Positions 1-18,775 of a stretch of DNA of 19,063 nucleotides are shown here, one piece after another (the first letter of the stretch is position 1; each line of letters opens with the position of its first letter). Source of the DNA: an uncultured archaeon (GTDB taxonomy: Archaea > Asgardarchaeota > Thorarchaeia > Thorarchaeales > Thorarchaeaceae); the NCBI GenBank assembly GCA_964648855.1, contig CAZYLT010000029.1, positions 1 to 19,063 on the forward strand. The letters are read 5' to 3'. A program made the position numbers and the translations under genes. Below the pieces are notes generated by a model. The model ran no database searches. It had not been told where the DNA came from and worked only from the letters and a program-made list of their open reading frames with translations.

Positions 1-84
1 TGCGCGTAAAGGGAAACTCCGCCCTCTGGAGCAACCTACGTTGCACCGCTAACCCATTGTCCTGTACCTCTCGTTCTACCTCTG
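1..84 (+). repeat. Dispersed composite repeat, copy 1 (truncated by the left window edge)
   Basis: 28-55 GGAGCAACCTACGTTGCACCGCTAACCC is identical to 7082-7109. 1-21 TGCGCGTAAAGGGAAACTCCG matches 5274-5293 with one extra A. Confidence 0.9.
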
Positions 85-181
85 AGAGGTTCCGAAGAAC
101 TGACAGTCTGTAGTATTGTCCCGCAGATGTATGCTTGACCCACTACATAATCAATGGAGGTCAAGGCGTTCATATGATTCA

Positions 182-1081
182 CTAGCTGTTGTGGTCCTGC
201 CTGTGCCAGACATAGATTGGATAAGAAGTACTAGTTTTGAAGCCCACGTGTTTGTACATCCTGAATGCGATATTGGGCTCATCAATAATCACATCTAGCC
301 AGACATTTGCTATCGACTTGTGTTCCCGTATAATCCCCTTCAAGATGTCAATTAGCAGTAATCTCCCAAGGCCACGGCCCCGGTAGGGGGGCATCAATCC
401 GATGAAACTGATATACCCTCTGTTTTTGAGTGTGTTGTAGACGCAGATACCAATCGGCTCCGAATCGTCCATGAGAAGGTATGTTTCACTATACCGGTTC
501 CATTGAGCGAGGGTTTCTCTGCATCCATCAATCGAGCCATAGAAGTCTTGGAAGAGTTCGAGAGAAGAAGAGTCACGATGGCACTCGTATAGCGTTGTAA
601 CAGCAGTTTTCTCGTTAGAAGTATCGAATGGAACCAGCGAGAAAGAATTGGGAAACTTCGAGGGAGGTAGGTCCTGTATCTCCTCGCGGGATATACTCAT
701 CAGTTTTCTATCGTATTTCACGAAGCCGTTGCTGGTGAACGTGTCGTAAAGGTGTTCAGGGAAGAATTGAGCCATGATATAGAGCGAAGAATACGACTTC
801 TTGAAGTGAGTGATTGAGTCTTCCAGGAGTTTCTTCCAGTGTCCATTCCTTGCATGTATCATTGTGAGCCGCTTCATGTCCACCTTGAACGAACAAAAAC
901 CGACAGGAGAGTTCTCTAGGTCGAACCCTGCCAACACCAGTATCTCGCCACTCTTCATCTTTGACCTGAGAGACTCCCGCAGCCTCTTTCTCTTACCTTT
1001 ATCATCCGTATAGGTGATAAGATATTCATCTACAAGGTCTTCAATTAGATTCCAATCCTCTACGAAAATCTCACGAAGCAT
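182..1081 (-). CDS. GNAT-family N-acetyltransferase (probably tandem GNAT, C-terminal domain intact)
   Basis: 299 aa. Acetyl-CoA motif A GLMPPYRGRGLGRLLL and motif B NIAFRMYKHVGF; GGGTGG upstream of the ATG. Confidence 0.85.
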   Translation of the reverse strand: MLREIFVEDWNLIEDLVDEYLITYTDDKGKRKRLRESLRSKMKSGEILVLAGFDLENSPVGFCSFKVDMKRLTMIHARNGHWKKLLEDSITHFKKSYSSLYIMAQFFPEHLYDTFTSNGFVKYDRKLMSISREEIQDLPPSKFPNSFSLVPFDTSNEKTAVTTLYECHRDSSSLELFQDFYGSIDGCRETLAQWNRYSETYLLMDDSEPIGICVYNTLKNRGYISFIGLMPPYRGRGLGRLLLIDILKGIIREHKSIANVWLDVIIDEPNIAFRMYKHVGFKTSTSYPIYVWHRQDHNS

Positions 1082-1415
1082 CAGCCCACCCGTTTCAAAG
1101 ATGGTTTGATTGAATATAAAATATCCTTGGCCTTGGTACTATAACATAGTCATCAGTAACAACGGAATAAGAGCGTGCTTGCAGTCATTTCTCGCTTATT
1201 GTCTAGTTATTGCTTTGGGACCTGTTGAAACTGATTTCACACGCGTACAGCGAGTTCCAATTCCCAAGTAAGTCTTGGATCCTGATTCGCCTTGATGATT
1301 GGACGCCTTTCCCTATCCCCGAAATGCCATTTCTGGCCCCAAATCGTATTGAAATTCCAGCATAATAGTATTGGATAGACACAAATACTTCACTGCAAGA
1401 CTATTTCTGATACCC

Positions 1416-3356
1416 ATGAATGATTTCCCTGTGGAATCCATTCTTTCTGCAAGACAAGTTCTATCTCCAAATCTCGTAGGTGACCATGTCTACTTTGTTA
1501 GTGATATGAGTGGGATTATGAGCCTATATAGAATGAGGAGGTCGGGCAGTTTCCCTGAAAGGTTACTTCCTGCTGGAATGGCGATCCAGAACCCCCATCT
1601 AATGGGACAAAGTCATCTCTATGTGGTTTTTCCTGAGGTGAATAAGATACTCCTCATGTTGGACCAGGACGGAAATGAGCTATATCAACCATGCCTACTA
1701 CCTCTTGAAGGTGGTGTTCCAGAACCAATCTTTGGTAACCAATACGAGGGGCAGCAAATCGCCTGTTACAACTACGATGTCAAAAGGGGTTATGCCTATT
1801 TTATTAGGGACGATCGCACAGTGAAGGAGGGGTCCTTCCGTTACACAATAAGAGTTAATCTCGAGTCCCTTACGGAAACCACTCTTGGTAGAAGTCAGGC
1901 TCTAGGTTTCTTACCTCAGCCCAACGACAATCATTCGAAAATCCTTTTGTCGGAGGGCTACGTATTTGGAGATTTTGTTACATTTCTCTGGGAAGAGGGT
2001 AAGGATGACCTGAAACTCATTCTAGGTACACCACTCAGTGAAAGGGGCGAGAAGGAGAAGACCAAACTATACAATGTCATTCCCATGCATTGGGGCGCGG
2101 AGGGTTCACTCATCTACACCACGGAGTTTGATGACCTTGGTGGGATAGGATACTTGGACATTGCCAACCCGGAGAGCTTCCAAGAAGTTACCATTGAGGG
2201 GCATTTACACGATGGCTTTGGTGAGTTCGAGTCCCTTGAACACATTACCCATGACAGGTATCTCTTGGCATACAATATTGACGGGTGCTCGTGGAAGTAC
2301 GAGGGGGTGTTTGACCGGGATGGCATGAAGATGACCATTCGAAATGTCATTGTTGGAACCCCACCCTTCAACGAGGGGGTGGATCTTGGTGTGACTTGGG
2401 ATAAATCAGTAACTCTCAATCAGAAGAAACCAATCCAGTATGTGATTTCGTTCACAAGTGCAACACAGCCCTCACAGCTTTATCTCTATGTTCCTGAAGA
2501 AGGCAAGGAGTCGATTGTTCAGCTATCAAGAGAACGGGTCATCGGTATACCTAGAGAAGTGTTCTCCCCCGGGGAAGATGCCAGCTATGACTCCTTTGAC
2601 GGATTGAGAATATCTGCACGGCTCTATTTGCCAGCGGAAGAGCTTGGCTTCCAGGGGCCACGCCCTCTTGTCTTGTACGTACATGGAGGGCCAGAGAGCC
2701 AAGAGCGGCCTGACTTCACTTGGTTCAGTATGCCACTGATTCAACTGTTGACAATGAATGGATTTGCAGTGTTTGTGCCAAATGTCAGAGGCAGCACAGG
2801 GTATGGGTTCAAGTACGCGAAGCAGGTTGACCATGACTGGGGAGGAAAGGACCGGCTTGACCATGTTGAGGGCATCAAATCACTCGAGCAAGATAATCGG
2901 ATCGACTCTTCCAGACGAGGGGTTGTGGGACGTTCTTATGGCGGGTACATGACTCTGACCCTCGCCATGCGCCATCCCGATCTCTGGGGAGCTGCCTGTG
3001 ATATGTTCGGACCCTATGACCTTATTTCTTACATCAACCGCGTACCTGAATCATGGGCGGTGTACTTCTACCTCACAATTGGACACCCAGAGAGAGATGC
3101 AGAATTCCTCAAGGAGCGGTCTCCCAGTGCATATATGGATGATCTTGAGGCGCCGCTTCTTGTAGTCCAAGGGAAGAACGATCCAAGGGTCCCTCATAGG
3201 GAATCTAGTGATATGGTAGAGAAACTAAGGTCATCTGGTAAGCAGGTCGAATACCTGATGTTTGAAGACGAGGGGCATGATGTCCTCAGATTCAAGAACA
3301 GAGTCACAGTCTACAACAGAATCGTAGACTTCTTCAAGACCCATTTGGAACCTTGA
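1416..3356 (+). CDS. S9 (prolyl oligopeptidase / acylaminoacyl-peptidase) family serine peptidase
   Basis: HGGP, NVRGSTGYG, nucleophile GRSYGG, acid QGKNDPRV, base DEGH, plus an N-terminal propeller-sized domain. ATG at 1416 preferred over the TTG at 1371. Confidence 0.93.
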   Translation: MNDFPVESILSARQVLSPNLVGDHVYFVSDMSGIMSLYRMRRSGSFPERLLPAGMAIQNPHLMGQSHLYVVFPEVNKILLMLDQDGNELYQPCLLPLEGGVPEPIFGNQYEGQQIACYNYDVKRGYAYFIRDDRTVKEGSFRYTIRVNLESLTETTLGRSQALGFLPQPNDNHSKILLSEGYVFGDFVTFLWEEGKDDLKLILGTPLSERGEKEKTKLYNVIPMHWGAEGSLIYTTEFDDLGGIGYLDIANPESFQEVTIEGHLHDGFGEFESLEHITHDRYLLAYNIDGCSWKYEGVFDRDGMKMTIRNVIVGTPPFNEGVDLGVTWDKSVTLNQKKPIQYVISFTSATQPSQLYLYVPEEGKESIVQLSRERVIGIPREVFSPGEDASYDSFDGLRISARLYLPAEELGFQGPRPLVLYVHGGPESQERPDFTWFSMPLIQLLTMNGFAVFVPNVRGSTGYGFKYAKQVDHDWGGKDRLDHVEGIKSLEQDNRIDSSRRGVVGRSYGGYMTLTLAMRHPDLWGAACDMFGPYDLISYINRVPESWAVYFYLTIGHPERDAEFLKERSPSAYMDDLEAPLLVVQGKNDPRVPHRESSDMVEKLRSSGKQVEYLMFEDEGHDVLRFKNRVTVYNRIVDFFKTHLEP

Positions 3357-3488
3357 CATAGCGCTACTAAACCATTATTAGAGTAATTCTAGCAGTAACT
3401 CTTTTCGACTAACTTTTGAAACCAAGAAATGTGCTAAACAGGGCAGAAAAAAGAAGAATCTTTCAAAAAGGGCAGATAACCTCTCTCC

Positions 3489-5009
3489 TCAGCTGAAGAT
3501 GGATGAAAACTTAGTCTGTAGATACTTCAGATATGGTTTGCACGACATCTCTTTGCCTGTGACTCTCTTCATGAGATCTGGCGCATCATAGAGTCGCCCC
3601 TTCTTGTGGATGTTTTCAGACATCCAACTGACAATATCGGAGATGTCACCATTGGCAATCTGGTCCCTCCAATCGGACATCTGCTTTGACATGGCCTCTG
3701 CTAACTGTGCCGAAAATATTTTTCCTAGTACAAACATCGGAAAATAACCATAGTAACCACGTCCCCACTGCACGTCTTGCAGTGCACCTTCGCCGTCGTC
3801 ATTCACTGTCACTCCAAGGTACTCCTCATAGAGCTCATTCCAGACGGATGGTATATCGGAGATCTCGATCTTGTTATCGAAGAGATCTTTCTCAATCTCA
3901 AATCGAATGATGATATGAGAAGTATATGTTAACTCATCGGCGGTAACACGGATTGGTCCGGGTCGTACTTGGTTCACCGCTCTTACGAACTCATCCACGC
4001 TTATATCCTTGAACTGCCCGTCTGTGGTCTCGTTCAGTATGGGCAAGAAGTATCGGATGAACTCAGGCGACTTTCCAATCATATTTTCAAGAAAATTTGA
4101 CTGTGACTCGTGGATGGAAACCCCCGACCATATCCCGACTGGCTGATACTGCCACTCTCTATCTAGATTCATATCGTATAGCGCATGGCCAGACTCGTGC
4201 ATGAAAGCATAGCAGGCTTGAGAGAAATTCTTCTCCTCGAATTTCAATCCGATTCGTACATCATCATATACACCAATTGACATGCCAGGATGCACACACT
4301 CGGCTATATGCCCGATAGCATTCTCTGATCTGAGGTCATAACCTACAAATTCTGCAAGCCGCTCAATCAACTGAATTTGGGTGGCCTTCTCTACGGGCCT
4401 ATTTAGAAAGTCAGTTTTTATCTCCTGCGAGATGTTGGCATATTTCTCAACCATAGAATTCAGAGGTGCTTTTAACTCATCAAAGACTTTAGTGATGTGT
4501 TCTGTCCTCATTCCCATTTCGAACCCGTCAATACAGACATCATATAGGTCAGAGGCACCTACAATGTCTTGAATGCATTCAGCATACTCCAGCATAAGAG
4601 TAAACATCTTCTCGAACTCAGGCTCAAAAATAGACCAGTCATTCTTTACCAGGGCCTTCTCCCGTGCATTATTCGTTATAGGCCACTGCCTATGCAATCG
4701 CTTTTCCAAGTCTTCTGGGAGCTGGGTGTTCATGTCATATTCTCTTCTCATAAGAAAGACGTTGCGTTTCTGAACCTTCGTCAGCGGTTCGTACACTGAT
4801 TCCTTCTCAACGGCATCGAGAAGGCTACCAATCTCCTTGTCTGTGTTCCGGCGGTGCCGTATAGACCCAAGGAGGGCATTCTGGTCAGCTCTTTGCGACA
4901 CAGCCCCCGGTGGCAAGAAGGTGTAGGTATCCCAGTTCAGGGTCCCCATCACAGACGCCAGTATTGTGATTTCTCTATGCTTCTCAAGTAATCTCTCGTA
5001 TGCCTCCAT
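3489..5009 (-). CDS. M32 family metallocarboxypeptidase (carboxypeptidase Taq-like), divergent
   Basis: HEXXH = HESGH, HESQS, IRVTADELTY, QDVQW, GYFP. ATG at 5009 with GGAGTG upstream. Confidence 0.92.
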   Translation of the reverse strand: MEAYERLLEKHREITILASVMGTLNWDTYTFLPPGAVSQRADQNALLGSIRHRRNTDKEIGSLLDAVEKESVYEPLTKVQKRNVFLMRREYDMNTQLPEDLEKRLHRQWPITNNAREKALVKNDWSIFEPEFEKMFTLMLEYAECIQDIVGASDLYDVCIDGFEMGMRTEHITKVFDELKAPLNSMVEKYANISQEIKTDFLNRPVEKATQIQLIERLAEFVGYDLRSENAIGHIAECVHPGMSIGVYDDVRIGLKFEEKNFSQACYAFMHESGHALYDMNLDREWQYQPVGIWSGVSIHESQSNFLENMIGKSPEFIRYFLPILNETTDGQFKDISVDEFVRAVNQVRPGPIRVTADELTYTSHIIIRFEIEKDLFDNKIEISDIPSVWNELYEEYLGVTVNDDGEGALQDVQWGRGYYGYFPMFVLGKIFSAQLAEAMSKQMSDWRDQIANGDISDIVSWMSENIHKKGRLYDAPDLMKRVTGKEMSCKPYLKYLQTKFSSIFS

Positions 5010-5091
5010 CACGAAACACTCCAAAGAGCAAAACGCTCGGCTATCTAGATATAACCATGTCTAATTAATGTGGCGGACCTCAATAGAATAG

Positions 5092-5244
5092 TATGATGTC
5101 GCTGGGCGGTTTGACGAAACTATCGAGATCTTAGTGAACTATGGCAAGGAACACAACGATAAGTCAGCTCTCGAACGAGCTGATGAAATCCGTGAGTTGA
5201 AACGGTCATTCGAAGAGACCCAACGTCCACTCTTTTTGGATTGA
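5092..5244 (+). pseudogene. Orphan 3' fragment of an unknown helical (TPR-like?) gene; forms the left part of repeat copy 2
   Basis: Open frame YDVAGRFDETIEILVNYGKEHNDKSALERADEIRELKRSFEETQRPLFLD*, preceded by an in-frame TAG at 5089. Homologous decayed frames at 6935-7027 and 15475-15537. Confidence 0.65.
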
Positions 5245-5360
5245 ATATGAAAAATATAGGGTGCTCAACAGCATGCGCGTAAGGGAAACTCCGTTTTCAG
5301 GATACGATTATACATTAGTGCTATTCTATCAAAACCGCTAATCCGCTATGCTCGTTGAAC
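5092..5360 (+). repeat. Dispersed composite repeat, copy 2
   Basis: Shares GAAGAGACC, GTCCACTCTTTTTG, TATAGGGTGCTCAACAGC (5255-5272 = 7037-7054), ACTCCGTTTTCAGGA and ACCGCTAA with copy 3. Confidence 0.9.
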
Positions 5361-5566
5361 TCTCTCTTTTCCTTCTGGCAGTGTTAATAATTCGGATTGC
5401 AGCATCATTGAGAGGGGAAATTGAACCATATTCAATCGTCTAATTGAGGGCACCAAGGTTGCTCTTACTGTAGGGGGCAAGGTCTAGCATGCTTTGAAAA
5501 GATGCGGGCTTGTGCTTCTATATCTATATGCAAAAGGCCTCGCCTTTAGATAAGTAAATTCGAGAA

Positions 5567-5968
5567 CTAGGAGCAAAGCCTACCTGCAAACCAATCGGCG
5601 AGTTCTTCAAGACGTATCCTATGTTCAATGGTGAGATTGCAAATCATTACTGACTCACATTTTTCTGATGTGAACCAATGCCCATTCATTCGTAGGAAAG
5701 TCTTAGCCGAAAGAAGTGCAGTCCTTTTATTCCCATCTTCAAATGGATGTACATTAATAATACACTCGAACAGAACAGCAGCTTTTAACCAGAGTGTTTC
5801 ATAGAGTTCTTCCTTTTGATAGCTCATCATCGGCTTTTCGGCACACATGTCAAGCATACCGTAATTAATCACGGTAGCGATGGAGAAATCCCATGCTTCA
5901 ATTGCTTGATGAAGTGAGATGATATCATCGGTGCTTAGATAGTGGAAGTTGTTGTTTGATTCCACCAT
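5567..5968 (-). CDS. doc: Doc (death-on-curing) family Fic toxin
   Basis: 133 aa. Doc-type Fic motif HPFEDGNKRTA, with KAAVL before it and FLRMNG after it. Confidence 0.92.
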   Translation of the reverse strand: MVESNNNFHYLSTDDIISLHQAIEAWDFSIATVINYGMLDMCAEKPMMSYQKEELYETLWLKAAVLFECIINVHPFEDGNKRTALLSAKTFLRMNGHWFTSEKCESVMICNLTIEHRIRLEELADWFAGRLCS

Positions 5969-5977
5969 CGCTGCCCC

Positions 5978-6427
5978 TTATTTCGCCAATTCTCTTAGTG
6001 TTTCCTCATCTTCGATAAGGAGTTGCAGAACGATACGCCTGAATCGGCTGTCCTGATGGTCAGCAAGGACTGATGCTGCATTAATGAATCGTAGTAGCGT
6101 TTCAAGACTGCGCCATTCGTAATCAGATGAGGAAATTGATCCCCTACTCCTATGGATAATCCATGAATCCAAAGCTGGACTTACGCCTATTTCACTGCTT
6201 GTGAGGTGAGTTAATTGATTCCTAATAAAAGGAAATCGTGGAACAGGAGAATCTGTTTCTTCTGCAGAGGGGCTTCTTATATCGTATCTCGTGATGAATT
6301 CATCATCTCTATTTAATGGAAATGAAAAAGTCGGATGGATATAGAGAGCGTTATCTGATGAGGTATGGACTGCAATCTCTCTTTGTACATACTCATCATT
6401 CAGTTGAGTGGGGATCATCTCTGTCAT
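5978..6427 (-). CDS. Putative Doc antitoxin with a long Ser/Pro/aromatic-rich N-terminal extension
   Basis: Lies 9 bp upstream of doc. C-terminus LLIEDEETLRELAK resembles the ...LRELAK tail of Doc-partner antidotes. ATGA overlap with the upstream gene. Confidence 0.6.
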   Translation of the reverse strand: MTEMIPTQLNDEYVQREIAVHTSSDNALYIHPTFSFPLNRDDEFITRYDIRSPSAEETDSPVPRFPFIRNQLTHLTSSEIGVSPALDSWIIHRSRGSISSSDYEWRSLETLLRFINAASVLADHQDSRFRRIVLQLLIEDEETLRELAK

Positions 6428-6795
6428 TCATTACCACCGGCTTCTCTGGAGGCTTGGATTTCCTTCTCCATCATTTCTAATTCACTTACTCTCTCATTAA
6501 GCCATCTAGCTAATTGTCTTGCTGCTGGTATTGAAAGATCAATGCCAACGATGTATTCTCTATCAACAATCGGGGGATCAGCTGGATCAATATCTTCTAT
6601 CCTTCCTTCGCGTTCATTTTTTGGAACTAATTTTTGCTTCGTTGACCGTCTAGTTTTTTCATGGTAGAAATCGATGTTGAGGTGGTATCCACTTTGGAAA
6701 CCTCCACGTGCACCAGTGGCATATACTTTTCGATAGTCTGGTGAATAATGATACTCGAATATCACCATTGGTTTATCCTTTTCATCTGATGGCAA
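6424..6795 (-). CDS. Hypothetical protein, DUF3467-like (beta strands plus C-terminal helix)
   Basis: PDYRKVYATGARGG...LNIDFYHE...REYIVGIDLSIPAARQLARWL pattern. TTG start with GGGGT upstream; stop overlaps the next start. Family call is from recalled pattern only. Confidence 0.55.
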   Translation of the reverse strand: MPSDEKDKPMVIFEYHYSPDYRKVYATGARGGFQSGYHLNIDFYHEKTRRSTKQKLVPKNEREGRIEDIDPADPPIVDREYIVGIDLSIPAARQLARWLNERVSELEMMEKEIQASREAGGNE

Positions 6796-6934
6796 GTCTT
6801 AACCCCTGTATCTTTATCATATTAATCGATGCTAGCAGCCTAATAGTATTGCGTATATGAAATCTCATGAGAATTACTACTAAAAATGTTTGTTAAGTGT
6901 CACTCTTATTGAGCTAGAAAACCCAGATATCTTC

Positions 6935-7140
6935 AGCGAGCAGCCAGCCCTAGTATAAACCCATGAGATTCGTGAATTAAAACAGTCGTACGAAGAGACC
7001 TAGTGTCCACTCTTTTTGAATAAATAAATGAAAAATTATAGGGTGCTCAACAGCGCACATGAAAGGGAGACTCCGTTTTCAGGAGCAACCTACGTTGCAC
7101 CGCTAACCCGTCAGGCCCGTACTTCTGCTGCTTTTGCTTC
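6935..7140 (+). repeat. Dispersed composite repeat, copy 3
   Basis: Decayed frame SEQPALV*THEIRELKQSYEET*CPLFLNK*, then core GCTCAAC (7045) ... GTCAGGC (7116) and a pyrimidine-rich tail CTTCTGCTGCTTTTGCT. Confidence 0.92.
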
Positions 7141-7148
7141 CAGATAAA

Positions 7149-7565
7149 TTAAGAGGCTACTAACACGCTTGCTAACCAAAGAATGAATTCTCTTAGTAGT
7201 TTGAGTCCAATATACGAAAGTACGCTTGTACTTAGGAATGTGATAATGGCCTCTCCAAGCGAGTTTGTTTCATTGTATGTTTCTGCAGCTGCACCAATTG
7301 CCATCAGCAGAGAAACACCCACTTCCGGTGCATCTATGAATATATGAACCAGAAAGCCTTCTGGGCTACGTGGATCTCCATAGTCGACATGAAGCTTCCA
7401 TCCGGTAGGATATTTCAGCAGGTGCATGTTACCAGGACCTCGATACTGAGCCATTGCGTCCTTGATTTCACCAAGCCTAGTTTCCTCAAACCCCGGGGGA
7501 AGATTCGGCATTCTGCTTTCTGGAATCCAGACTTCCTGCCCCGGTTTCAGTTTAGGTAACATCAT
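7149..7565 (-). CDS. Hypothetical membrane protein with a His/Asp-rich N-terminal domain and C-terminal hydrophobic helices
   Basis: ATG 7565 preceded by GGAGGTGA, 1 bp after the upstream stop. Motif QYR...H...HVDYGDP...H...DAPE followed by two hydrophobic segments. Confidence 0.75.
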   Translation of the reverse strand: MMLPKLKPGQEVWIPESRMPNLPPGFEETRLGEIKDAMAQYRGPGNMHLLKYPTGWKLHVDYGDPRSPEGFLVHIFIDAPEVGVSLLMAIGAAAETYNETNSLGEAIITFLSTSVLSYIGLKLLREFILWLASVLVAS

Positions 7566-7566
7566 T

Positions 7567-7818
7567 CTAGTTTTCACCTCCAAATATTTCTGCAAGAACG
7601 GCCACCCCCACACCGAAAAGGAATGCCCCTACTAGTGAACCAAGCGCTGACTGCATATATTGAGGATTCTCTCGCGCCCTTTTTTCACGGATATCGGCAA
7701 TGAAGGCATGTATGATCTGCTGAACCAGAGCATTACGAGACGAGGCCATACCTTGGTCAGCTAAAGCATCCAATATTTCCGCTTCCTCATCAGGCAAAGT
7801 CACAATAATCCGCGCCAT
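7567..7818 (-). CDS. Ribbon-helix-helix (CopG/NikR-like) protein with a C-terminal Gly-rich transmembrane segment
   Basis: MARIIVTLPDEEAEILDALADQGMASSRNALVQQII is an RHH pattern; ALGSLVGAFLFGVGVAVLAEIF is hydrophobic. Confidence 0.8.
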   Translation of the reverse strand: MARIIVTLPDEEAEILDALADQGMASSRNALVQQIIHAFIADIREKRARENPQYMQSALGSLVGAFLFGVGVAVLAEIFGGEN

Positions 7819-7820
7819 AA

Positions 7821-7870
7821 TTACACATCTTACATATTTGTATGCGTATTACGCATATATTGATATAATT
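7821..7870 (-). promoter_or_regulatory. Putative promoter/operator of the RHH operon
   Basis: Perfect inverted repeat TATGCGTA-T-TACGCATA at 7841-7857. Related half-sites TTACACAT (7821) and TTACATAT (7830). AAAATTATAT TATA-like element on the minus strand just upstream. Confidence 0.6.
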
Positions 7871-7981
7871 TTTGTTACTTCGTGTCAATAAGACTGGGGC
7901 TTTCACCTGAGAAACAAGTGCACAGGATTGCTTAATGATATGACAATCTGTCTTCAGCATCCCCAATGCAATATGATAGAA

Positions 7982-8488
7982 TTACACATTATTAATGGAT
8001 TGCTGAAACAAAGATGCCCTTAGATGTTTCTTGAAATTTCTATCAGCCAACAGAAGCGGACGATATATGCCATCAAGAAGAGTAGTAGCATTCGCAACAG
8101 CTTGTCTATCAATGGCCGCATCTCTGCTCTTGCTGCCGTGGAAAAGGTTGCATCTTACTTGATAAATGACTTCAACAATGTTTTCAAAGTCCTCATCGGA
8201 TGCAGGCTTGTAGATGCCCTTGGTTTTCATGTTCTTGATCCCATTTTCAATAAACCAATCGATTGCCTCACACATCTCTGGATTCGACTCGCGTGCCTTT
8301 TCGAACGTATGATTGTAGTTCTCTTTGAACCAGTCTATCATATCACGGTCTGTATTCTCATTGGATTCTCGAGCAAGCCATGCATTGAATGATATCCAAA
8401 GATAGATGAATCGGTCAAAATCGGCCATTTCGTATCTATCAAACCACTCAGAAACCAAGTCTTTGAATGGAACTTGTGTCAAACTCAT
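7982..8488 (-). CDS. Stand-alone HEPN-domain protein (ApeA-like HEPN pattern), putative RNase
   Basis: N-terminal RFIYLWISFNAW helix and Rx4H motif YQVRCNLFHGSK. Confidence 0.75.
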   Translation of the reverse strand: MSLTQVPFKDLVSEWFDRYEMADFDRFIYLWISFNAWLARESNENTDRDMIDWFKENYNHTFEKARESNPEMCEAIDWFIENGIKNMKTKGIYKPASDEDFENIVEVIYQVRCNLFHGSKSRDAAIDRQAVANATTLLDGIYRPLLLADRNFKKHLRASLFQQSINNV

Positions 8489-8626
8489 AGTATCACATGA
8501 AGAAACAGTGCTAAGAAGAACAAGAATGTTTGGTATCCAAATGACCTAAGAATCAACAGGACTCTAATTTAACGGATTCTGATAGTGCAAAATGCGTTTC
8601 AAGATAAAGGACGGGTTAGTTTCTTG

Positions 8627-11437
8627 CTACCACTTTATGCTCGAAGTTAGCAATGTTTCGTCTTTCTCAACATTGACCACTCGGTCTGCTACTCTATGAA
8701 ACTCATCGTCGTGCGTTACGATAACTATCTGATTAGCGGGGCTTACACGCGAGAGGGTTTCCACGAGTTCAGTCTTCCGTTGGTCGTCAAGATATGCGGT
8801 AGGCTCATCTAACATTAGCAAATCACTGCTAGCCAGTGCTCGTGCAAAGCCCAGTCTGACTGCTAGCCCTGCTAGAACTTGCTCGCCCCCAGACAGCCTG
8901 CTCATGGGTTCAAATGTTCCAAACCTCGATATCTGAAGGTCATGGTTCTCACCGATTCTAATCCTGTCATATTCGTTGGATCCTATTAGCGTCTTGAATA
9001 TCTCAGTGGCATGGTTAGATGCTCGTGCAGTGTCTCTTTTCCTCAGGGGTTTCTGGACTTCTCTGAAAAATTCTCTAACTTTAGACACAACCGCAAGCGC
9101 TGTAGTTGCTCTCTCTTCTTTTTCTGTCACCTTTTCAATTTCCTCTGCTGCCTTCTTGGATTCTTCGAATAGCTCTTTGGCATTAGGAATAAGTTCATTC
9201 TCCAATGTTTCAATACTCTCATCTAGTCTGGTAACCGCTTCTTCTAATGCCCCAACCTCTTCTCGCAATTCTGTGTGTTTCTCAGTATCATAGGATTTCT
9301 TCAAATCGGACAGCTCGTCCTCGTCTTCCTTCTGTTCAGTCTTCAGCTTGGTTAGATACTCAAGTGTGTTCTTAATACCGGAAAGGTCATGTATCAAATC
9401 TCTAAGAGCTTGTTCCTGAATTTCTAACTCAGCTATCTCTTTTTTGAGGCCTTCGACCTTCCCATGAGGGTCTTTGGCTTTCATCTCCGATATTTCCTCA
9501 TCAAGTGTTTCAAGCCGAGAGTGAGCTTTTTCAATATCCAATTCTAGCTCAGGCAGGTCTTCAGAAATAGTGCTCAGTCTATCCAATTCCTTGATTGATT
9601 CTTCTAGTTTCTGCTTTTCTTTGCCAAGTGATTCTGAATCATATTCACTCAATGCGTCTGCTATTTCATCGACCTCACTATTTGTTTCATGCAATTGCTC
9701 TCTTTTCTGACCAAGCTCGACTGATGTATCTGTATCAATTTTTAAATAGAGCCGAGCCTGCTTTATTAGCTCGGTTCTCCTCCGGAGTTCTTCCTTTTCC
9801 TTCTGATTTTCATTCAAAGTGCTTTCAAGCTCGAATTCTTCAGCTAGAAGAACATCCAATTCCTCTTCGGTTTGAAGCAATTTATCTTTGATTTCACTTC
9901 GCAATCTTTCTGCATGTTCATCATTTACAATTTGCTTGCATTTCGGACACTTCTTCCCTTTTATATCAGACAAGTCATCCAAGTCATTTTTGTACCGGTC
10001 AATTTGACCACGTTTTCTTCCTTTCTCATTCTGGATTTTTTGAAGTTCAGAGCGGGCCTTTTCTTCTTGACTCTTCACGCTCCGTAATTTGGGAGAAAGA
10101 CTTCTCAAGTCAGTATTGGCAAGTTCTTTCCAATCATCTCCAACCTCCTCGATTGCAGCCGACTCATTTTCTTGCAGGCGCGCTTCTAAGGCATCTATAG
10201 ACAATCGGAGATCCTGAAGTTGTTCGAGAGCATTCTCGTGTTGTGATTCGAGGTCTGATAGTTCAGATATGCGGGACTCGACTTCATCCTTCTGCGACGT
10301 GAATTCATCTCTCCTACTGGATAATGTTTTCGTCCATTTCTCAGTTTCATCTTCACTCAATGCTGGTTCAAACGAGAGTATCCTTTGTCGCTTGCTTTCT
10401 ACCTCTTGTTCCTTTTTGGTTAACTCGCTCTTTCGAGTCTCATAATTCTGTTCACGATGCTTCAGACTTTCTACCTTCTGTGAGTACTCGTCTTTAGCAA
10501 TTCTTTTGGATTCTAGCTCTTCTTTGATCGCATGATGTGTTTCCTGAGCGGCACCTATCAAACTCTCTACCTTTGATTGCTCGATGATTTCCGGTATTTC
10601 AAAATCAACCTTCTCGGCGTGTTTTTTGATTGACCTTATGTACTTGGTCTTATCTTCAGCAGTGCGTTCTATTGTACCATTCCGCTGCTTTGCCTGAGTT
10701 TCTAGTGTTGAAATTCGCTTTTCAATGTCATTCAATTCATCCAGATCTGATTTCTTGGCTTTCAGGTCTTTTCTTAGTTGCTTAATCTCGCCTTTCTTTT
10801 CTTCCTTCTGTGCTCGTTTTGTTTCGAGCTCCTTTTTCCGTTCATCCAATTTTGATGCGGGTTCTTTGTAGGCTTCAATTACGTCAGCAGCCCGTTCAAT
10901 ATCATTTTCTAAAGTGTTCATAATTTGTCGGCATCTGCCCCACGCAACTTCATAGTCATGTAATCCCAAGAGTTTATCGAAGAGCTTCTTTCGGTCACTC
11001 TTCTTCATGCCAATGATTTGCGCTATCTCCCCTTGTCCAACAAGAATAACATCACTGAATATCTCTCTGCTGATTTCAAGTTTTTCAGATATCTCATTGG
11101 TCACAACTGACTGCTTTTCTGCGATGGGTGGTGAATCTCGAGATGTGAGCAAGAATGCCTCGGGAGAGCCTGATGCTCTCAGTTTCCTTTGAACAATATA
11201 CTCCTGTCCTCTATGCTCGAATTCCAGTTCAAATTCCGCATAATCTTTTCCTATCCTCACCATTTCGTCATTATTCCCTGGAGGATAGTAACCGTATAGA
11301 GAGTAAAGGATGGACTGGAGAATGGTGCTCTTGCCAGAACCATTCCTTCCGATAATCACGGTCTTACCACTGGCAAAGCTGACCTCTGAGTCTTCAAAGC
11401 ACTTTACATCATTCATCTTGAGATTACGGAGTATCAA
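8627..11437 (-). CDS. rad50: DNA double-strand break repair ATPase Rad50
   Basis: Walker A GRNGSGKS, Q-loop VGQGEI, coiled coils, Zn hook CPKC, signature LSGGE, Walker B/D-loop LMLDEPTAYLD, H-loop VTHD. TTG start overlaps the mre11 stop (TTGA). Confidence 0.96.
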   Translation of the reverse strand: MILRNLKMNDVKCFEDSEVSFASGKTVIIGRNGSGKSTILQSILYSLYGYYPPGNNDEMVRIGKDYAEFELEFEHRGQEYIVQRKLRASGSPEAFLLTSRDSPPIAEKQSVVTNEISEKLEISREIFSDVILVGQGEIAQIIGMKKSDRKKLFDKLLGLHDYEVAWGRCRQIMNTLENDIERAADVIEAYKEPASKLDERKKELETKRAQKEEKKGEIKQLRKDLKAKKSDLDELNDIEKRISTLETQAKQRNGTIERTAEDKTKYIRSIKKHAEKVDFEIPEIIEQSKVESLIGAAQETHHAIKEELESKRIAKDEYSQKVESLKHREQNYETRKSELTKKEQEVESKRQRILSFEPALSEDETEKWTKTLSSRRDEFTSQKDEVESRISELSDLESQHENALEQLQDLRLSIDALEARLQENESAAIEEVGDDWKELANTDLRSLSPKLRSVKSQEEKARSELQKIQNEKGRKRGQIDRYKNDLDDLSDIKGKKCPKCKQIVNDEHAERLRSEIKDKLLQTEEELDVLLAEEFELESTLNENQKEKEELRRRTELIKQARLYLKIDTDTSVELGQKREQLHETNSEVDEIADALSEYDSESLGKEKQKLEESIKELDRLSTISEDLPELELDIEKAHSRLETLDEEISEMKAKDPHGKVEGLKKEIAELEIQEQALRDLIHDLSGIKNTLEYLTKLKTEQKEDEDELSDLKKSYDTEKHTELREEVGALEEAVTRLDESIETLENELIPNAKELFEESKKAAEEIEKVTEKEERATTALAVVSKVREFFREVQKPLRKRDTARASNHATEIFKTLIGSNEYDRIRIGENHDLQISRFGTFEPMSRLSGGEQVLAGLAVRLGFARALASSDLLMLDEPTAYLDDQRKTELVETLSRVSPANQIVIVTHDDEFHRVADRVVNVEKDETLLTSSIKW

Positions 11438-12663
11438 TGTTCCTCGCCTCCTAAAACAGGAAAATTGCTCCTACCTTCTACGAATTCATAGAGCCTATCG
11501 AGTAGGGTTGCCTCTGCCTTATCATCCATGGATTGGGTAAGAATCTCCTTCATATCCTTAGCCAAACTGACCCACTCATTGGCATTCTCTTCGGGAACTC
11601 CTAATCGATGAACAAAGACCTCCTGCATAACTTCTGCATCAGAAGCACTCTCACGAATAGGCGGTCCTGCATACTCCATCTCGGGTACTATATTGACATA
11701 GAATGCCTTCTCTGTTTCTCGGGCCAATTTGTTTATGTCCAATGTTTGCTGGGTATCGCTAAGGACCCCTCTTACGTCCACTCTGATTATTGCATCCTCT
11801 TCATCCAGCTCTTGCAAGGCGTCAGCTACAGCGTCTGATGCCTCAGAGATGGTCACCGTTCCTAATTCTAGGATTTTCCTTTTCTTTGGTCTGACTTCAT
11901 ATTCTAGCCTGTTGATTTCTGGCTTCCACTTGTTTGCAGTTCTTGTCAAAACTACCAGAGCAGCTGATCGCTTTGGCGTGTCCCATTCTTCTGCGGATAC
12001 ATGTTCTGTGGAGCCGGTACAGCACATGGTCTGTGACCCATTGACCCACCATCCATGATAATGCCCTAATGCGATATAGTCGAAGCCGAGAATGTCAAGA
12101 GAATATTCGCTAAGCTGCGCAGAGGACAGCATATTCTCTAAGAATTCATGCAAAAGCAAGATATTAGGTGTATCACCCGGTTCCAACAACTGTTTGTTTT
12201 CTTCAACAAGTTCACCGAGCCTCTTCTGGGGCTCAGCGCCGTAATAACCGACACCCCAAACCCTGACCGAACGCCCGTCTGTTAAATTGACTTCTTCGTA
12301 TTTGTCTTCAAGAAGATTGACCAGTCCGAGGTCTTGAAAGACATGAATTTCATTTCCGCCCTGTCGTTTACTCCATGCGTATGAAGCGTCATGGTTCCCA
12401 CGAATAGCAAAGACAGGAATCTCCTTTTCTTTGAATACATTGAAAACTTTGATAGCTTGTCTTTGGTCTACAGGATATGGTCGTGGGCGATGAAAGATGT
12501 CCCCCGGTACCAAAATCAAGTCGGGGTCTTGTTCAACCAGCAGTTCTGCCGCACTAATTGCAGCATTGTAGAAATCCTTGATCCGGTCATATTTTCCATA
12601 CTGTCTATATCCCAAATGTAGGTCAGACATCTGACCCATTCGTATCTCCTCATTCTCACTCAA
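11434..12663 (-). CDS. mre11: DNA double-strand break repair nuclease Mre11
   Basis: Phosphoesterase motifs SDLHLG, GDIFH, GNHD, LLLHE, LGHYH. TTG at 12663 overlaps the herA stop (TTGA). Confidence 0.95.
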   Translation of the reverse strand: MSENEEIRMGQMSDLHLGYRQYGKYDRIKDFYNAAISAAELLVEQDPDLILVPGDIFHRPRPYPVDQRQAIKVFNVFKEKEIPVFAIRGNHDASYAWSKRQGGNEIHVFQDLGLVNLLEDKYEEVNLTDGRSVRVWGVGYYGAEPQKRLGELVEENKQLLEPGDTPNILLLHEFLENMLSSAQLSEYSLDILGFDYIALGHYHGWWVNGSQTMCCTGSTEHVSAEEWDTPKRSAALVVLTRTANKWKPEINRLEYEVRPKKRKILELGTVTISEASDAVADALQELDEEDAIIRVDVRGVLSDTQQTLDINKLARETEKAFYVNIVPEMEYAGPPIRESASDAEVMQEVFVHRLGVPEENANEWVSLAKDMKEILTQSMDDKAEATLLDRLYEFVEGRSNFPVLGGEEH

Positions 12664-14246
12664 TTCCAATCCCGCCTCTCAAAGGCACCATCGCCATCAT
12701 GTCGAGGAGCTTCCCTTTGAGTATTTCGCCCCTCTTCATTGTTCCAAGATCCTATAACATCGATGTCTTCACCGCCGAGAGACCCCTCGTACTTGTCAAT
12801 CTTGACCAATGCAGGAAGATTGACTGCGGGTCCGAAGACCACAGCTTCGCCCACATTCAAGCTAGGTAGCTCTTGCATCAAATCTTTGCTCAGCGCTTCT
12901 GCTGAGTTTTCGATGTTGCTTTGATCTCTTGGATTCACAACACGCAACACAATCATGCTATTACATTGGGAGAGAACATTGGAGTCTATTTTTCCGGGCC
13001 TTTGCGATACAACACAGAGACCTACCCCGAATTTCCTTCCTTCGGACGCAATTCTGCGGAGAATTCTCTTTGATGTGGACCATCCCTCAGTGGGTATGAA
13101 GTTATGACACTCTTCAACAACCAGTAAAACGGGGCCGGGTATGGAGTCCTCACCTTCAATACTACGACGCCATGCTACAGCTCCTCGCAGAATCTTTTGA
13201 GCAACTCTCCGGACAGCTGCTTGTTGGACATCAGTATCAAGACCAGCCAATGACAGCACAGTCATGCATCCCTCATTTACTATGCCGGGAGAAGTTACAT
13301 CCCCAGCTAACGGAACTTCTTGAGTGGGATCCAAAATAGCAAATTCTGTTGCTTCACCCATTAGGCTGAGCAAGGCTCGATACTGGTCTGAGTTTTCCCC
13401 ACCGTCTGCTTGCCTTAATGCCTCTTCCAAATCATCTCTACCCCATTCCCGACCCTCGAGTCGTTCGAATGCATCTCTGAAAAGCTCCCTCTGCCTGTTA
13501 GCATTTGATCGTACTCTCAGAATTGAAAGAAAATCATCAGCCGAGAAACTATTGAATCTGAACCTCAGTGGGTGGATTCTTCGTGACCTATCAGCCTCAA
13601 TGGAGAATGAAACCACCCTCTCTCCCAACTCGTTGCGCATAGACACGTATTCACTATGGGGATCTATGACCACGATAGAGCCGCCCAGTTCCAATATCCT
13701 TGAAGCAATTACAGCTACAGTATTCCCTTTTCCACCCCCAGTTATCGCTAATATTGCCAAGTGCCGCCGTACAACCTCATTGACATCAAGTCTAACTCGA
13801 ACATCCTCACTGGTAAGGAGATGACCCACCTCAATATGGCCTTGACCAAAGGCCTGAGAAAGCAGTTCTGTGGGAGCTCGGGAAACGTCTGCGCCAGGTG
13901 GAGGCGAGAAACGAGGTATCTCCAGTTCGTTTGCCTCGTTCAAATAGCCCATAATGCGAGCATTTGCGGTCAGGATTTCGCCATCTGTCAAATCACCAAT
14001 TCGCCTCAATGCTTCAAACTCTCTTGGACTTGTTAGGATTGAATTTGGCATATTGAGATTAGTAACACCAATCTCGGACACGGATGCTAGTACGGGTTGT
14101 TCCAAATCCCCACATCCGTATTCTATTACCAAATACTCACCAAGCCGAAGAGGATTTGTCCTGACGACTGATGGATCAATACAAATTGTTACTTCAATCG
14201 GGGTTGTTGTTCCCAGAAGATTTCCAATTACTTGTCGATTGCTCAT
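12660..14246 (-). CDS. herA: HerA DNA translocase/helicase
   Basis: N-terminal HAS barrel, RHLAILAITGGGKGNT, VVIDPHSEY, Walker B VVEECH, EGRKFGVGLCVVSQRP. GGTGA RBS. Confidence 0.95.
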   Translation of the reverse strand: MSNRQVIGNLLGTTTPIEVTICIDPSVVRTNPLRLGEYLVIEYGCGDLEQPVLASVSEIGVTNLNMPNSILTSPREFEALRRIGDLTDGEILTANARIMGYLNEANELEIPRFSPPPGADVSRAPTELLSQAFGQGHIEVGHLLTSEDVRVRLDVNEVVRRHLAILAITGGGKGNTVAVIASRILELGGSIVVIDPHSEYVSMRNELGERVVSFSIEADRSRRIHPLRFRFNSFSADDFLSILRVRSNANRQRELFRDAFERLEGREWGRDDLEEALRQADGGENSDQYRALLSLMGEATEFAILDPTQEVPLAGDVTSPGIVNEGCMTVLSLAGLDTDVQQAAVRRVAQKILRGAVAWRRSIEGEDSIPGPVLLVVEECHNFIPTEGWSTSKRILRRIASEGRKFGVGLCVVSQRPGKIDSNVLSQCNSMIVLRVVNPRDQSNIENSAEALSKDLMQELPSLNVGEAVVFGPAVNLPALVKIDKYEGSLGGEDIDVIGSWNNEEGRNTQREAPRHDGDGAFERRDWN

Positions 14247-14257
14247 TTCTTAATCAC

Positions 14258-15310
14258 CTATCCAAACATGCTTCTCCTTTGTGCTCCGAAAACGAATTTT
14301 GCCGTATTCATGTCCTCTTTTGCAATTGAAGACATGATTAAGCGAGCCAACGATTCAGATAATGCATCCGGAATCATTGCCCGGTTATGGACTATATGTG
14401 ACGGTAGAAGATACCCGTTCCCATCATGCATTGACACAGCGAATCCTTTGACCTCATCAAGACGGTTCTCTTGACTCCTGAGTGTGTCAAGACGAAAGAC
14501 CCGTCCGTGTGGCTTCATAATTCCAAACATGGTCTGGAAATCAGCTCTACCATCGATTAGAATGGACTTGGACTCTAAGAATTGTTTCACTCGTGGAATC
14601 TCAAGATACTTGGCATCCATTACAGGGGTGAAACCGGTTCTTCCACCAGCGTATAGCGCAAGGGTTGCACTGTCATTCAGCTTTCTTGGGAAGTTGTATT
14701 CTCTTGAGAGGAGTCGAGACCTCGGGTCCTTTGCGGCACCAATGAGAGGAACCTCTAAGGTCTGGCATTGCTGAATTAGAATATCGAATCGCTGTAGGAA
14801 TCGCATATATGAGCGGAAATACTCATAGTGTGGGCTATCGTCTGGCTGTGGATGCGTGAAGTAGTATAGACTCGAGTGAGGAACCCCTTGGGTTGCATAG
14901 CTGGCGAGTCCGTTGTCCAAGACAGCAAACTCCGGATTATTATTGAGTAATTCAAGTATGCATTCTATTTCGAGTATATCACGTTCTATTCCTACAAACC
15001 TGTCCACGTTTCTAGGAAGGCTCGTGAACCCAGCATCCATTCTTTCATACCATTTGATAGACTCGTTGGGTCGAAACAGACCTGCTGCAGCCCTGATCAC
15101 ATACAGGCTTCCTCCGACTAGGTCGAGATATGCTGAGCCACCATCAACCCATGCGGACGTGATTTTATCATCTGATGGTGGAGGAAAATCTAATTCCAAA
15201 TCCACGCCTCTGAGTTGGTTCTGGGTGTCCCTCATCTCGTGAATCACATTTTCAGAGAAGTTTCTGACTTTCGTTAACCAATGCTCATCGACTTCCTCAT
15301 CTGCTTGCAT
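14258..15310 (-). CDS. nurA: NurA 5'-3' nuclease
   Basis: AWVDGGS, E...E, AVLDNGL, GAAKD, GYLLPSHIVHNRA; directly upstream of herA. Confidence 0.88.
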   Translation of the reverse strand: MQADEEVDEHWLTKVRNFSENVIHEMRDTQNQLRGVDLELDFPPPSDDKITSAWVDGGSAYLDLVGGSLYVIRAAAGLFRPNESIKWYERMDAGFTSLPRNVDRFVGIERDILEIECILELLNNNPEFAVLDNGLASYATQGVPHSSLYYFTHPQPDDSPHYEYFRSYMRFLQRFDILIQQCQTLEVPLIGAAKDPRSRLLSREYNFPRKLNDSATLALYAGGRTGFTPVMDAKYLEIPRVKQFLESKSILIDGRADFQTMFGIMKPHGRVFRLDTLRSQENRLDEVKGFAVSMHDGNGYLLPSHIVHNRAMIPDALSESLARLIMSSIAKEDMNTAKFVFGAQRRSMFG

Positions 15311-15460
15311 TATCAGTTTTCCACCCCTGTGCTACGGATGATACCGGAGCTCATTACAAATCCACATTATTTCAATGAATGTGTTCTATATCAATCCATG
15401 TTTCATTATCATTAATCTCGGTTTCTCCGAGCTAATTGAGCAATAGACTAAAGACGCCAG

Positions 15461-15645
15461 CATAAGTCAACTGCATTCGTTATCTGGAAATAGCATTCAC
15501 CGAAGCCCAAAATCCACTCATTTTTAATAGCTTCTGAAAAGAATAGAGAGCGCTCAACAGCACAATAGCAAGGGTAACTCCTTTTTCTGGTGAACCTGGA
15601 TTGCACCCCAACCCGTTAGGCCCAATTCTTCCGCTGCTTCTGCTA
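15461..15645 (+). repeat. Dispersed composite repeat, copy 4 (most diverged)
   Basis: Frame IRYLEIAFTEAQNPLIFNSF* (15475-15537), core GCTCAAC (15552) ... AAGGGTAACTCC ... TTGCACC ... AACCC-GTTAGGC (15621), tail CTTCCGCTGCTTCTGCT. Confidence 0.85.
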
Positions 15646-15659
15646 CTATGAGTAGAATC

Positions 15660-16874
15660 TCATAGAATCTCTTGAATGAAAGATAGTAGACTATTTTCTG
15701 ATTCTTTGATATTTCGCATATCGAAACCATATTCGACTATTTCTTTGCCATGAAATTTCTCCGATTGGATTTGTAATCCTTCTTGCCAGGATGGAAAGAT
15801 CAATGCTATCGTGTCAACATCATATTTCTGGACATATGTGATTGCTTGATTAATATCGGGACGAGTGAGACTCTCTTTATATTTCATATCCATTACCATA
15901 ACAGGTATTTCTTCATAATAGATTACCAAATCGGGTCGTATCATATAACGTTGTGAGCTTTCAAACAAGTACTTGGATTCCTGAAATCTGACACCATATT
16001 TCTTAGAAATTACCGAGTCCCTTATCAAATAGTAAATGTATCTCTCGAAGACGTCATTCATATCAACTAGAAATGATGAGATTCTAATCTTGCCGAAAGA
16101 TTCTAGTTCTATCTGCGTATTGCCGATAATGAACAATGCCATTTCAAGAATGTCATAATAGTAGTATCTAGTAGATGGAACTTTGTTCCTTTCAATCTTC
16201 TCTCTCACATCGGCGACTGAATTTGAATCCCAAGACAAGGTTATGTCTTTGAACCACCTGTACTTTGATATGAGAGAGGCTCGCAAATTTGAGCCGATTT
16301 TGCCTTCACTCAGATACAATAAAGAGTAGAGTGCCAGCTTGACTATCCTGTTCTCTCTGTTATCATCGGTGGTCTGAACGCCATTGCACACAATCCCGGT
16401 TTGGTCTCCCCTAATCCACTTTGCAAGAGTCGGTTCGATTAGTACCCTACCACGTACTTTGTTGTGCATAATCTTCCGCTCTGAAAGCTTCAGGAGCCCG
16501 TATCTTCTAAGCTCATCCAGCATTTCAAGAAACGAAACGACGATAAAATCAAACAGATTATCACATTGCGAAACCTTTTCGGTATTCGACACAGCTTGGA
16601 TTTGTGCCAGATTTGCATTAGGAATATTTCCAGTGGTCGTTCTTGACTTGCCTAGGATATATAGAAAATCGTTAATCTTCGCCTTTGGATTGATGACTAT
16701 AGTTGTATTCTCGTTAATAGGAAGAATACCGACATAATTCAGTGCCTTGAATCTTAAGCCTTCTCTTGAATAGATAGGCTTCAAATATTTCTCAATACCC
16801 GGATAGTAATCCATTTCAGCTCTGAAAATGTTGCTTGATCTCCACTCTTGTAGAGGGATTCTATTCCTCTTCAC
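15660..16874 (-). CDS. mcrC: McrC-family PD-(D/E)xK restriction nuclease subunit
   Basis: NYVGIL, DMNDVFERY, IRPDLVI...MDMKYK, DINQAITY. GTG 16874, overlapping the end of mcrB, preferred over 16928. Confidence 0.88.
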   Translation of the reverse strand: MKRNRIPLQEWRSSNIFRAEMDYYPGIEKYLKPIYSREGLRFKALNYVGILPINENTTIVINPKAKINDFLYILGKSRTTTGNIPNANLAQIQAVSNTEKVSQCDNLFDFIVVSFLEMLDELRRYGLLKLSERKIMHNKVRGRVLIEPTLAKWIRGDQTGIVCNGVQTTDDNRENRIVKLALYSLLYLSEGKIGSNLRASLISKYRWFKDITLSWDSNSVADVREKIERNKVPSTRYYYYDILEMALFIIGNTQIELESFGKIRISSFLVDMNDVFERYIYYLIRDSVISKKYGVRFQESKYLFESSQRYMIRPDLVIYYEEIPVMVMDMKYKESLTRPDINQAITYVQKYDVDTIALIFPSWQEGLQIQSEKFHGKEIVEYGFDMRNIKESENSLLSFIQEIL

Positions 16875-17967: not shown

Positions 17968-18286
17968 TTCGAAAGATACCCCATGTGATTTGGAGCAAAC
18001 TCATTGCAATATTTAGTTTATGTTATCCGTTCTATTAAATAAACTTCGATGATAATTCGCAGCAAAATTGCTTGAATAGGCATGTCACGTCCATAGACTG
18101 GCACTCTGACTCGTTTAGCCAAACTAGACCAATTTCCCATAAAAAAGAAGATTCGGTTTCCAAGGCATTCTCAATTAGAACAAAACATCAAGATTTGCCA
18201 TTCGCGCTAAAGTCAAAAAATAAGGAAGTCATATGGTAAATGCTGGTATCTACTCATTTTAAATCTCCACTGCAAGAAACTTCTGT

Positions 18287-18420
18287 GTTCCACCCGTCTC
18301 CTGCCCGGTGTTACCACCATCTCACACACCAAACTGGCCTGTGAGTAAGCAGAAGCTTTGTCCGAACTCATCGGGATTGAATCCCTCCCTCGGTCGCGGC
18401 TTCTGTCTCCTGTCGTGACA
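18287..18420 (-). ncRNA. Candidate omegaRNA / element right end of the TnpB remnant (boundaries approximate)
   Basis: Minus-strand hairpins CTCACA-GGCCA-GTT-TGGTG-TGTGAG (18345-18321) and GGTG-GTAA-CACC (18318-18307, GNRA loop). GC-rich tract giving way to AT-rich flank near 18265. Confidence 0.4.
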
Positions 18421-18775
18421 TGCCCGCATCAGTAGCAGCAACAGTGAGTGTTTCCACAGTTCTTTCCACGGCGGGGTCGTTATCACTCAACTCAGGCTCG
18501 TCGCCGAACCTGGACAGGTCCGTCTGGACAAAGTGAACAGCCGCGGACTCGCCAGGATGTGATGCATCATCCCTTTTGGAGAGTGCGGACTTCCGCTTGG
18601 AAGAGTTTCTCTTCCTCCCGGCCTTCGAGACTGGGGCTCGCTCAGGAGTCACCCACCGCCCTATCCCGTGTGTATCATTCCGAAGTGAAGGAATGAGCTT
18701 GATGAGGCGGCGTGCGATGTTCAGAGAAACACTGCAAACAGCGTTGGTCTTGAATACATAATTAAGAAGTGGTAA
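18368..18775 (-). pseudogene. tnpB: TnpB-like (IS200/IS605/IS607) C-terminal remnant
   Basis: The 18368-18652 ORF stays open upstream to 18775 and reads ...FKTNAVCSVSLNIARRLIKLIPSLRND..., a decayed RuvC-III NAD.NAA.NIARR motif with the catalytic D lost, followed by a low-complexity tail. No zinc finger or RuvC-I/II upstream. Confidence 0.55.

Follow-up and report, generated by a model that had tools for sequence, protein, structure and literature searches.

The repeats that divide this stretch of DNA are 5′-truncated copies of the 3′ trailer of the host 16S rRNA, comprising the arm of the processing stem and a T-run, and we regard this identification as practically certain. The window analyzed is the whole of the 19,063-nt contig C29 of genome G000 (C-numbers denote other contigs of G000, and G-numbers denote genomes of the same family); its four main repeat copies are termed c1 to c4, and 16S sense corresponds to its minus strand. 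The native copy was located on C19 directly 3′ of the 16S gene (Rfam archaeal SSU) and runs opposite to the plus strand of the window; it forms the processing stem together with the 16S leader and ends in the T-run. Copies c2, c3, and c4 paired with the leader better than 200 of 200 shuffles, and c1, which is cut short, showed no such pairing. Since the same arm closes the 16S gene in relatives without an array in the fetched loci (e.g., G019, G011, and G016), the repeat is the host's own sequence. An identity as the terminus of a mobile element was also considered and dropped, given that array-free relatives carry one copy behind 16S. An Rfam search of the window yielded no match. At their 3′ side the trailer copies all stop at the T-run, while the 5′ edge varies over 12 to 230 nt; this edge never passes the AAGTCG/TAACAAGG site, and none of the copies reaches past the 1492 target site.

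As summarized in Table 1, the trailer copies alternate with cargo modules in the window. The four homologous repeats of the same orientation in the preliminary description are real, with profile E-values from 1e-14 to 1e-50 and identities of 81% over 122 nt (c2/c3), 75% over 135 nt (c4/c3), and 90% over 48 nt (c1/c3); the last pair includes a 28-nt identical block, and the mosaic make-up noted for the copies was borne out. The c3 trailer matched the native trailer at 88% over 129 nt. The 5′ edges of c1, c3, and c4 lie about 8, 20, and 22 nt past the 16S end position, respectively, and the first hairpin of c1 is of another lineage's type. The left part of c2 is the 3′ stub of a giant gene, and weak similarity past c2 runs to about position 5357. 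The decayed fifth copy (P of 0.002 to 0.04 against four reference copies) splits in two what had been taken for a single 5-kb interval with the GNAT gene and two peptidases. The distance between the minus-strand stop codon and the repeat is about 10 nt for c3 and about 15 nt for c4, but about 90 nt for c1 and more than 200 nt for c2.

Table 1. Trailer copies, cargo modules, and element remnants along contig C29
Feature	Position	Strand	Basis or remark
c1, 16S-trailer copy	1–90	−	Cut by the contig start
Module: GNAT acetyltransferase (182–1081, −) and S9 peptidase (1371–3356, +)	182–3356		Pfam
Decayed fifth trailer copy	3398–3442	−	Similarity to reference copies; intact repeat at the same spot in G006
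Module: giant-gene stub and M32 carboxypeptidase (3489–5024)	3459–5286	−	Pfam; 90% identical in G006
3′ stub of the giant gene with predicted Cas1 fold, 34 aa	5110–5211	+	68% identity; intact gene is C19:36416–41566
c2, 16S-trailer copy: distal arm, T-run, downstream GAGTGGA motif	5226–5302	−	Profile
Module: Doc/Fic toxin triad (123, 149, and 133 aa)	5567–6795	−	Pfam
c3: trailer (7006–7140) and decayed giant-gene stub (6934–7005)	6934–7140	−	Sequence similarity
Module: 154-aa ORF, RHH, 168-aa ORF, nurA-herA-mre11-rad50 operon	7149–15310	−	Pfam
c4: trailer (15513–15645) and strongly decayed stub-like left part	15461–15645	−	Profile
Module: mcrB-mcrC	15660–17967	−	Pfam (McrC, McrB-type AAA)
TnpB 3′ end and omega-RNA region	18248–18761	−	18262–18761, 88% nucleotide identity to the C19 element

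Pfam supported the earlier calls of GNAT, S9, M32, Fic/Doc, RHH, Rad50, Mre11, HerA, NurA, McrC, and a McrB-type AAA protein; HEPN received no Pfam call in the window, where an RxxxxH motif is visible by eye only. McrB (16861–17967) carries a HARE-HTH domain at its N terminus. The nurA-herA-mre11-rad50 genes form an accessory second operon, the housekeeping copy being on C9; the window-type NurA, detected in 9 of 86 genomes of the family, adjoins a repeat in G008 and not in G009 or G023. The cargo had been described as mostly of the defence type; toxin-antitoxin pairs dominate, with peptidases, an arsenic operon, and kinases carried as well. Its modules had also been thought far larger than integron cassettes, which is true of the window and not of the family, where intervals have a median length of 1.45 kb.

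Public contigs from one study bridged c2 and c4 without differences, and none of those listed spanned c3. Contigs of this study also joined c2 to c3 (side 30), c3 to c1, and c1 to the TnpB end; these joints may originate from repeated words and were left out of any count of circles and deletions. A contig from a single run joined a repeat core to a TnpB remnant (side 86). In run X4 the M32 region (window positions 3477–4934) was present as a diverged allele with 134 differences, on a contig continuing into other sequence, which suggests module variation inside the population.

A profile search of the 3.1-Mb assembly revealed about 12 repeat copies, on C19 (one), C29 (four), and C31 (seven), plus one end of C57, and the copies are co-oriented within each contig. 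The repeat model matched 62 of 86 family genomes, native trailers included. In 36 genomes we mapped 196 trailers, 22 of them native, in fetched loci that had been chosen for matches, and none was inverted. The array and the 16S gene share a contig in over a dozen relatives; in the genomes consisting of a single contig, all exact cores lie at 16S in G044 and at one locus in G082. As judged from sequence, C29 likely belongs to an accretion array whose anchor is the 16S 3′ end. The serial gene-capture array envisaged at the outset is supported: the copies group around a single anchor without any inversion, and modules differ between genomes in presence and order, the breakpoints lying within the repeat; neither scatter in random orientation nor invariant, syntenic modules in relatives lacking the repeats was observed. 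A tyrosine or serine recombinase, which the preliminary description had proposed to look for near the copies, was not found in the G000 assembly.

Comparison among genomes revealed how modules are exchanged. The congeneric G001 and contig C31 have three modules in common, in different order and company, with homology starting or ending inside the repeats, and the stub and M32 module of the window recurs at 90% identity in G006, which belongs to another genus, with its edges at the flanking repeats c2 and the fifth copy. Modules are shared, swapped, and reordered as the preliminary description had anticipated, and crossovers inside the repeat exchange them between genomes. A nucleotidyltransferase (NTase) module has moved between genera together with a repeat of foreign type (G001, G012, and G095). 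When 61 copies were compared with 22 native trailers, 35 were closest to the trailer of their own genome. Junctions are weakly conserved across genera, a start near the repeat being shared in only 9 of 49 cross-genome module pairs, and no age polarity was detected along the arrays (rho = −0.10, P = 0.48). An AGTRGA element motif at +28/29 opens 39 of 194 modules (about 20%), versus 2 and 2 in control windows. Near the distal array end, a 196-aa module recurs with an identical junction at TAACAAGG, both at L103:10238–11122 and in G015, G062, G067, G087, and G089, representing several genera.

On C19, the 16S trailer and two cargo genes are followed by a 1716-aa giant gene (36416–41566) with a divergent TnpB. 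In a structural model of the giant protein (pLDDT 78.8), residues 1 to 240 matched Cas1 (Z 13.2, rmsd 3.9, 198 residues aligned), the top 12 matches of the structure search were all Cas1 or casposase, and a weaker match to a Cas4-like nuclease (Z 6.4) followed the Cas1 part; on this modeling, the N-terminal 240 residues are predicted to have the Cas1 catalytic fold. Pfam, PDB sequence, and Atlas feature searches with the giant protein were blank, and its single-sequence model reached a pLDDT of 37. Foldseek matched Cas1 only at an E-value of 0.2. The TnpB retains the rearranged D-E-D triad in 20 of 20 copies; TvTnpB with a rearranged triad is active and cuts 21 to 22 nt from the TAM (PMC10530073). 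This element lies immediately behind 16S in 10 genomes. Its debris in the window consists of the giant-gene 3′ stub in c2, fainter stub-like traces in c3 and c4, and the TnpB 3′ end (18262–18761), which stops just short of the guide units and abuts a module-start motif (18248–18262). Casposons are characterized by a family B polymerase, long terminal inverted repeats, and a fixed short target duplication; judged by ORF size, no polymerase-sized ORF was found beside the element in the mapped loci, and the duplications at the array are long and variable. Arrays are also present in G044, G067, G087, and G089 (86% to 88% complete), in which both the giant gene and TnpB were not found.

Several related sequences were noted. 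G000 has two canonical Cas1 genes, on C32 and C42. The first 900 nt of C52, reverse strand, contain a second TnpB right end with two 16S guide units and no TnpB, followed by an ATPase-bearing module, and both ends of that contig resemble the right end of C19. Short dispersed elements made up of the TnpB 3′ end and omega-RNA region occur at L001:13718–14047 and on C1, C2, C6, C8, C20, C34, C45, and C56, and the one on C56 apparently interrupts a gene that is intact in G001. In G004 (L117:1646–5609), two TnpB genes without the giant gene lie directly behind the 16S trailer, with 16S-matching units present.

Past the end motif of the element there are up to four units, each comprising a CAGGTCGG-like motif and 16S sequence, in both orientations. 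Thirty such guide-like units from 12 genomes match four 16S sites, each preceded by GGAT or GAAT; the best matches span 12 to 27 nt, compared with at most 13 nt with one mismatch, and mostly 7 to 9 nt, for shuffled units. For the 24 units with their own 16S at hand, the own match was perfect over at least 10 nt in 5, and the 16S of another genome was matched in 14. The predicted guides were thus found to match the naive allele next to a TAM and to spare the carrier's allele, as far as sequence matching can tell. The 17 full 16S genes have inserts at seven positions, of which five lie inside the four guide targets; most inserts are 30 to 31 nt long, and the G000 16S is altered at all four target sites.

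The edges of the repeats bear on the same sites. Of 36 well-aligned trailer-side edges, 23 lie 4 to 20 nt beyond the end of 16S, close to where the last guide is predicted to cut, versus 11 expected under a crude uniform null; these counts, like those for the inserts and for mvhD below, overstate independence, the genomes being kin. A protective insert is present in 24 of 29 copies that keep a 16S tail versus 10 of 31 native genes, and tail-bearing copies carry it even in genomes whose own 16S lacks it. Both the edge cluster and the insert enrichment would also fit removal of intact-target copies by TnpB, or selection against extra 16S tails. The repeats may have been "born at the cut" or "trimmed until immune", by a nuclease or by Cas1 integration, and either fits. 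In G065 (L154:5568–5840), the last guide unit continues into a complete trailer copy, so that guide and repeat are one sequence, which is possibly a snapshot of repeat birth.

A sister element was identified at mvhD in G000 (C4:172781–179156), with its TnpB downstream of about 179400. Its predicted guides target codons 16 to 20, and the mvhD allele of the carrier differs by synonymous changes. Five copies of the mvhD 3′ end were found, in three genomes, and every one begins at codon 19, within the guide target; such an exact edge inside the seed hints at Cas1 integration rather than a nuclease.

We propose, with a probability of roughly 0.55, that the array is driven by the TnpB/Cas1 element behind 16S. 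During growth, the element would direct TnpB to the final ~200 nt of 16S in other alleles and break these, or open them for Cas1; repair would then rebuild 16S out of the incoming allele, trailer and cargo included, and the old trailer would be pushed outward as a 5′-truncated repeat. Inserts of 30 nt or point changes would protect the carrier's own 16S. Host homologous recombination between copies of 60 to 200 nt may subsequently delete, swap, and reorder modules and make the repeats mosaic. This origin is favored because the element sits first behind 16S in 10 genomes, encodes a predicted Cas1 fold, and keeps its triad; because the 30 units match four 16S sites and inserts fall in these targets; and because of the edge cluster, the 1492 limit, the insert enrichment, and the codon-19 edges at mvhD. 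It is weakened because four genomes have arrays without a detectable element, because polarity is absent and junction conservation weak, and because the first joining of cargo to the T-run falls outside the model, the AGTRGA start accounting for about 20% only. For the window itself it is further weakened because C29 and C19 are separate, unjoined contigs in the assembly. A broader reading is offered tentatively, as something short of an even bet: a system of RNA-guided gene capture and gene drive, in which a multi-guide TnpB would direct breakage or Cas1 integration at the 3′ ends of essential genes (16S, mvhD, and probably tRNAs), spread its own allele with protective 30-nt inserts, and build integron-like arrays of displaced host gene ends as a by-product, without a tyrosine or serine recombinase.

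The best surviving alternative, which we consider rather unlikely, is accretion by the host alone: incoming DNA would anchor by homology to the 16S end (RadA), its other end would join illegitimately, and the element would be a passenger that at most filters the surviving copies. The arrays without a detectable element, the scatter of 5′ edges, the missing polarity, and the transfer of whole modules with a foreign-type repeat, as for the NTase module, all agree with such accretion, but it predicts neither the upper limit at the guide target, the edge cluster, and the insert enrichment nor the exact mvhD edge inside a guide target.

It appears improbable that circles were integrated, as at tRNA islands, at an att site within the tail of 16S by a site-specific tyrosine or serine recombinase that works in trans or has disappeared since. 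Such integration would account for the module with the same TAACAAGG edge in at least six genomes and for a layout like that of tandem islands at gene 3′ ends, and G003 does have tyrosine recombinases, elsewhere in its genome. However, the edges vary over 200 nt with no fixed crossover site, and no match to PF00589 or PF00239 was obtained in G000 (94.6% complete); the controls of the PF00589 search were positive in 14 of 14. In this genome not even XerA was detected among tyrosine recombinases, and no resolvase was detected either, so the statement that no recombinase is visible in the window extends, for these two families, to the whole assembly; PF00589 was also without a match in four of five relatives tested (G044, G067, G089, and G019).

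That the array is an archaeal integron (CALIN) with the repeats as attC sites is very improbable, despite the direct repeats after gene stops, an RYYYAAC motif in the repeat core, and the enrichment of CALINs in Asgard archaea (PMC9668308). The R″-R′ box pair of attC, which would form a bottom-strand hairpin, is absent in c1 and c3, and 111-nt folds were no better than shuffles (z from −0.9 to +2.0), so that box-pair and folding tests gave attC identity no support. The integron-like recombination site of the preliminary description is accordingly not supported: the repeat is a host 16S trailer, single in array-free relatives, with no consistent attC structure, and no integrase, which a CALIN may lack, was found in G000. 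Dispersal over the genome in both orientations and terminal inverted repeats, as expected of MITE or REP elements, were not found. That the repeats are such a dispersed element or stem from misassembly, as suggested by the contig start inside a copy and by the lack of a listed public contig spanning c3, is scarcely credible, since the copies are confined to C19, C29, C31, and one C57 end in one orientation per contig and to one locus in G044 and G082, c2 and c4 are bridged without differences, and the layout recurs family-wide.

Tandem or accreted islands such as CIMEs and tycheposon islands occur at the 3′ ends of tRNA, tmRNA, or protein genes. In such islands, as here, the anchor gene is restored and its displaced 3′ ends form direct repeats between cargo blocks; here, in contrast, the anchor is the 16S trailer, the edges are variable, and no tyrosine or serine integrase was found. 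With integrons and CALINs (PMC9668308) the array shares reordering and swappable, often toxin-antitoxin, modules between co-oriented repeats, whereas its repeat is host sequence without attC structure, and IntI, attI, and detected polarity are lacking. Its outcome resembles that of an integron and its layout that of an accreted island, but the array is a member of neither as defined.

Among described loci, the aCas1-associated TnpB loci Cas1H-Asgard-1 and -2 of Asgard archaea share the divergent TnpB, the giant Cas1-fold gene, and a GTTCACTCA-like end motif, according to the accessible parts of the source (PMC10691335). These parts propose a transposon with a possible guide before the motif and make no mention of 16S-matching units after the motif or of a cassette array. 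Restorative homing by TnpB (PMC13565253) and collaborative or intronless homing (PMC2988022) likewise involve a free-standing nuclease that cuts insert-less alleles and spreads linked DNA by gene conversion; here, in contrast, several predicted RNA guides address an essential rRNA gene, Cas1 is a partner, and cargo has accumulated. In Heimdallarchaeum, the mobile element HeimM2, also from Asgard archaea and with a homing endonuclease, is inserted beside the sole 16S gene, but it is a single element with a protein-guided nuclease, and the accessible portion of that report (PMC8813620) describes no trailer-repeat array. Our search of a mostly open-access literature found no description of a 16S-trailer array or a 16S-directed TnpB.

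The findings suggest that integron-like arrays of accessory genes can arise in Asgard archaea without an integrase, here tied to the rRNA locus and observed throughout a family. The catalogued aCas1-TnpB loci would gain a concrete target, a TAM, and a predicted product, and a natural pair of Cas1 and multi-guide TnpB bears on the origin of CRISPR adaptation and of type V effectors. The stray 16S tails include the anti-Shine-Dalgarno end, and they cause breaks in metagenome assemblies.

Protection is a candidate reason for the 30-nt rRNA inserts. In the 16S genes of the family (e.g., that on C19 of G000, L002:3224–4820) these are hairpins of a fixed length of 30 to 31 nt and variable sequence at a few hot spots, and the fixed length recalls Cas1 spacers. 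In G019 (L105:1759–1948), which has no array in the fetched locus, several hairpin inserts lie in tandem in 16S helix 45. One insert sits in the 1492R primer site, so that PCR may miss such genes.
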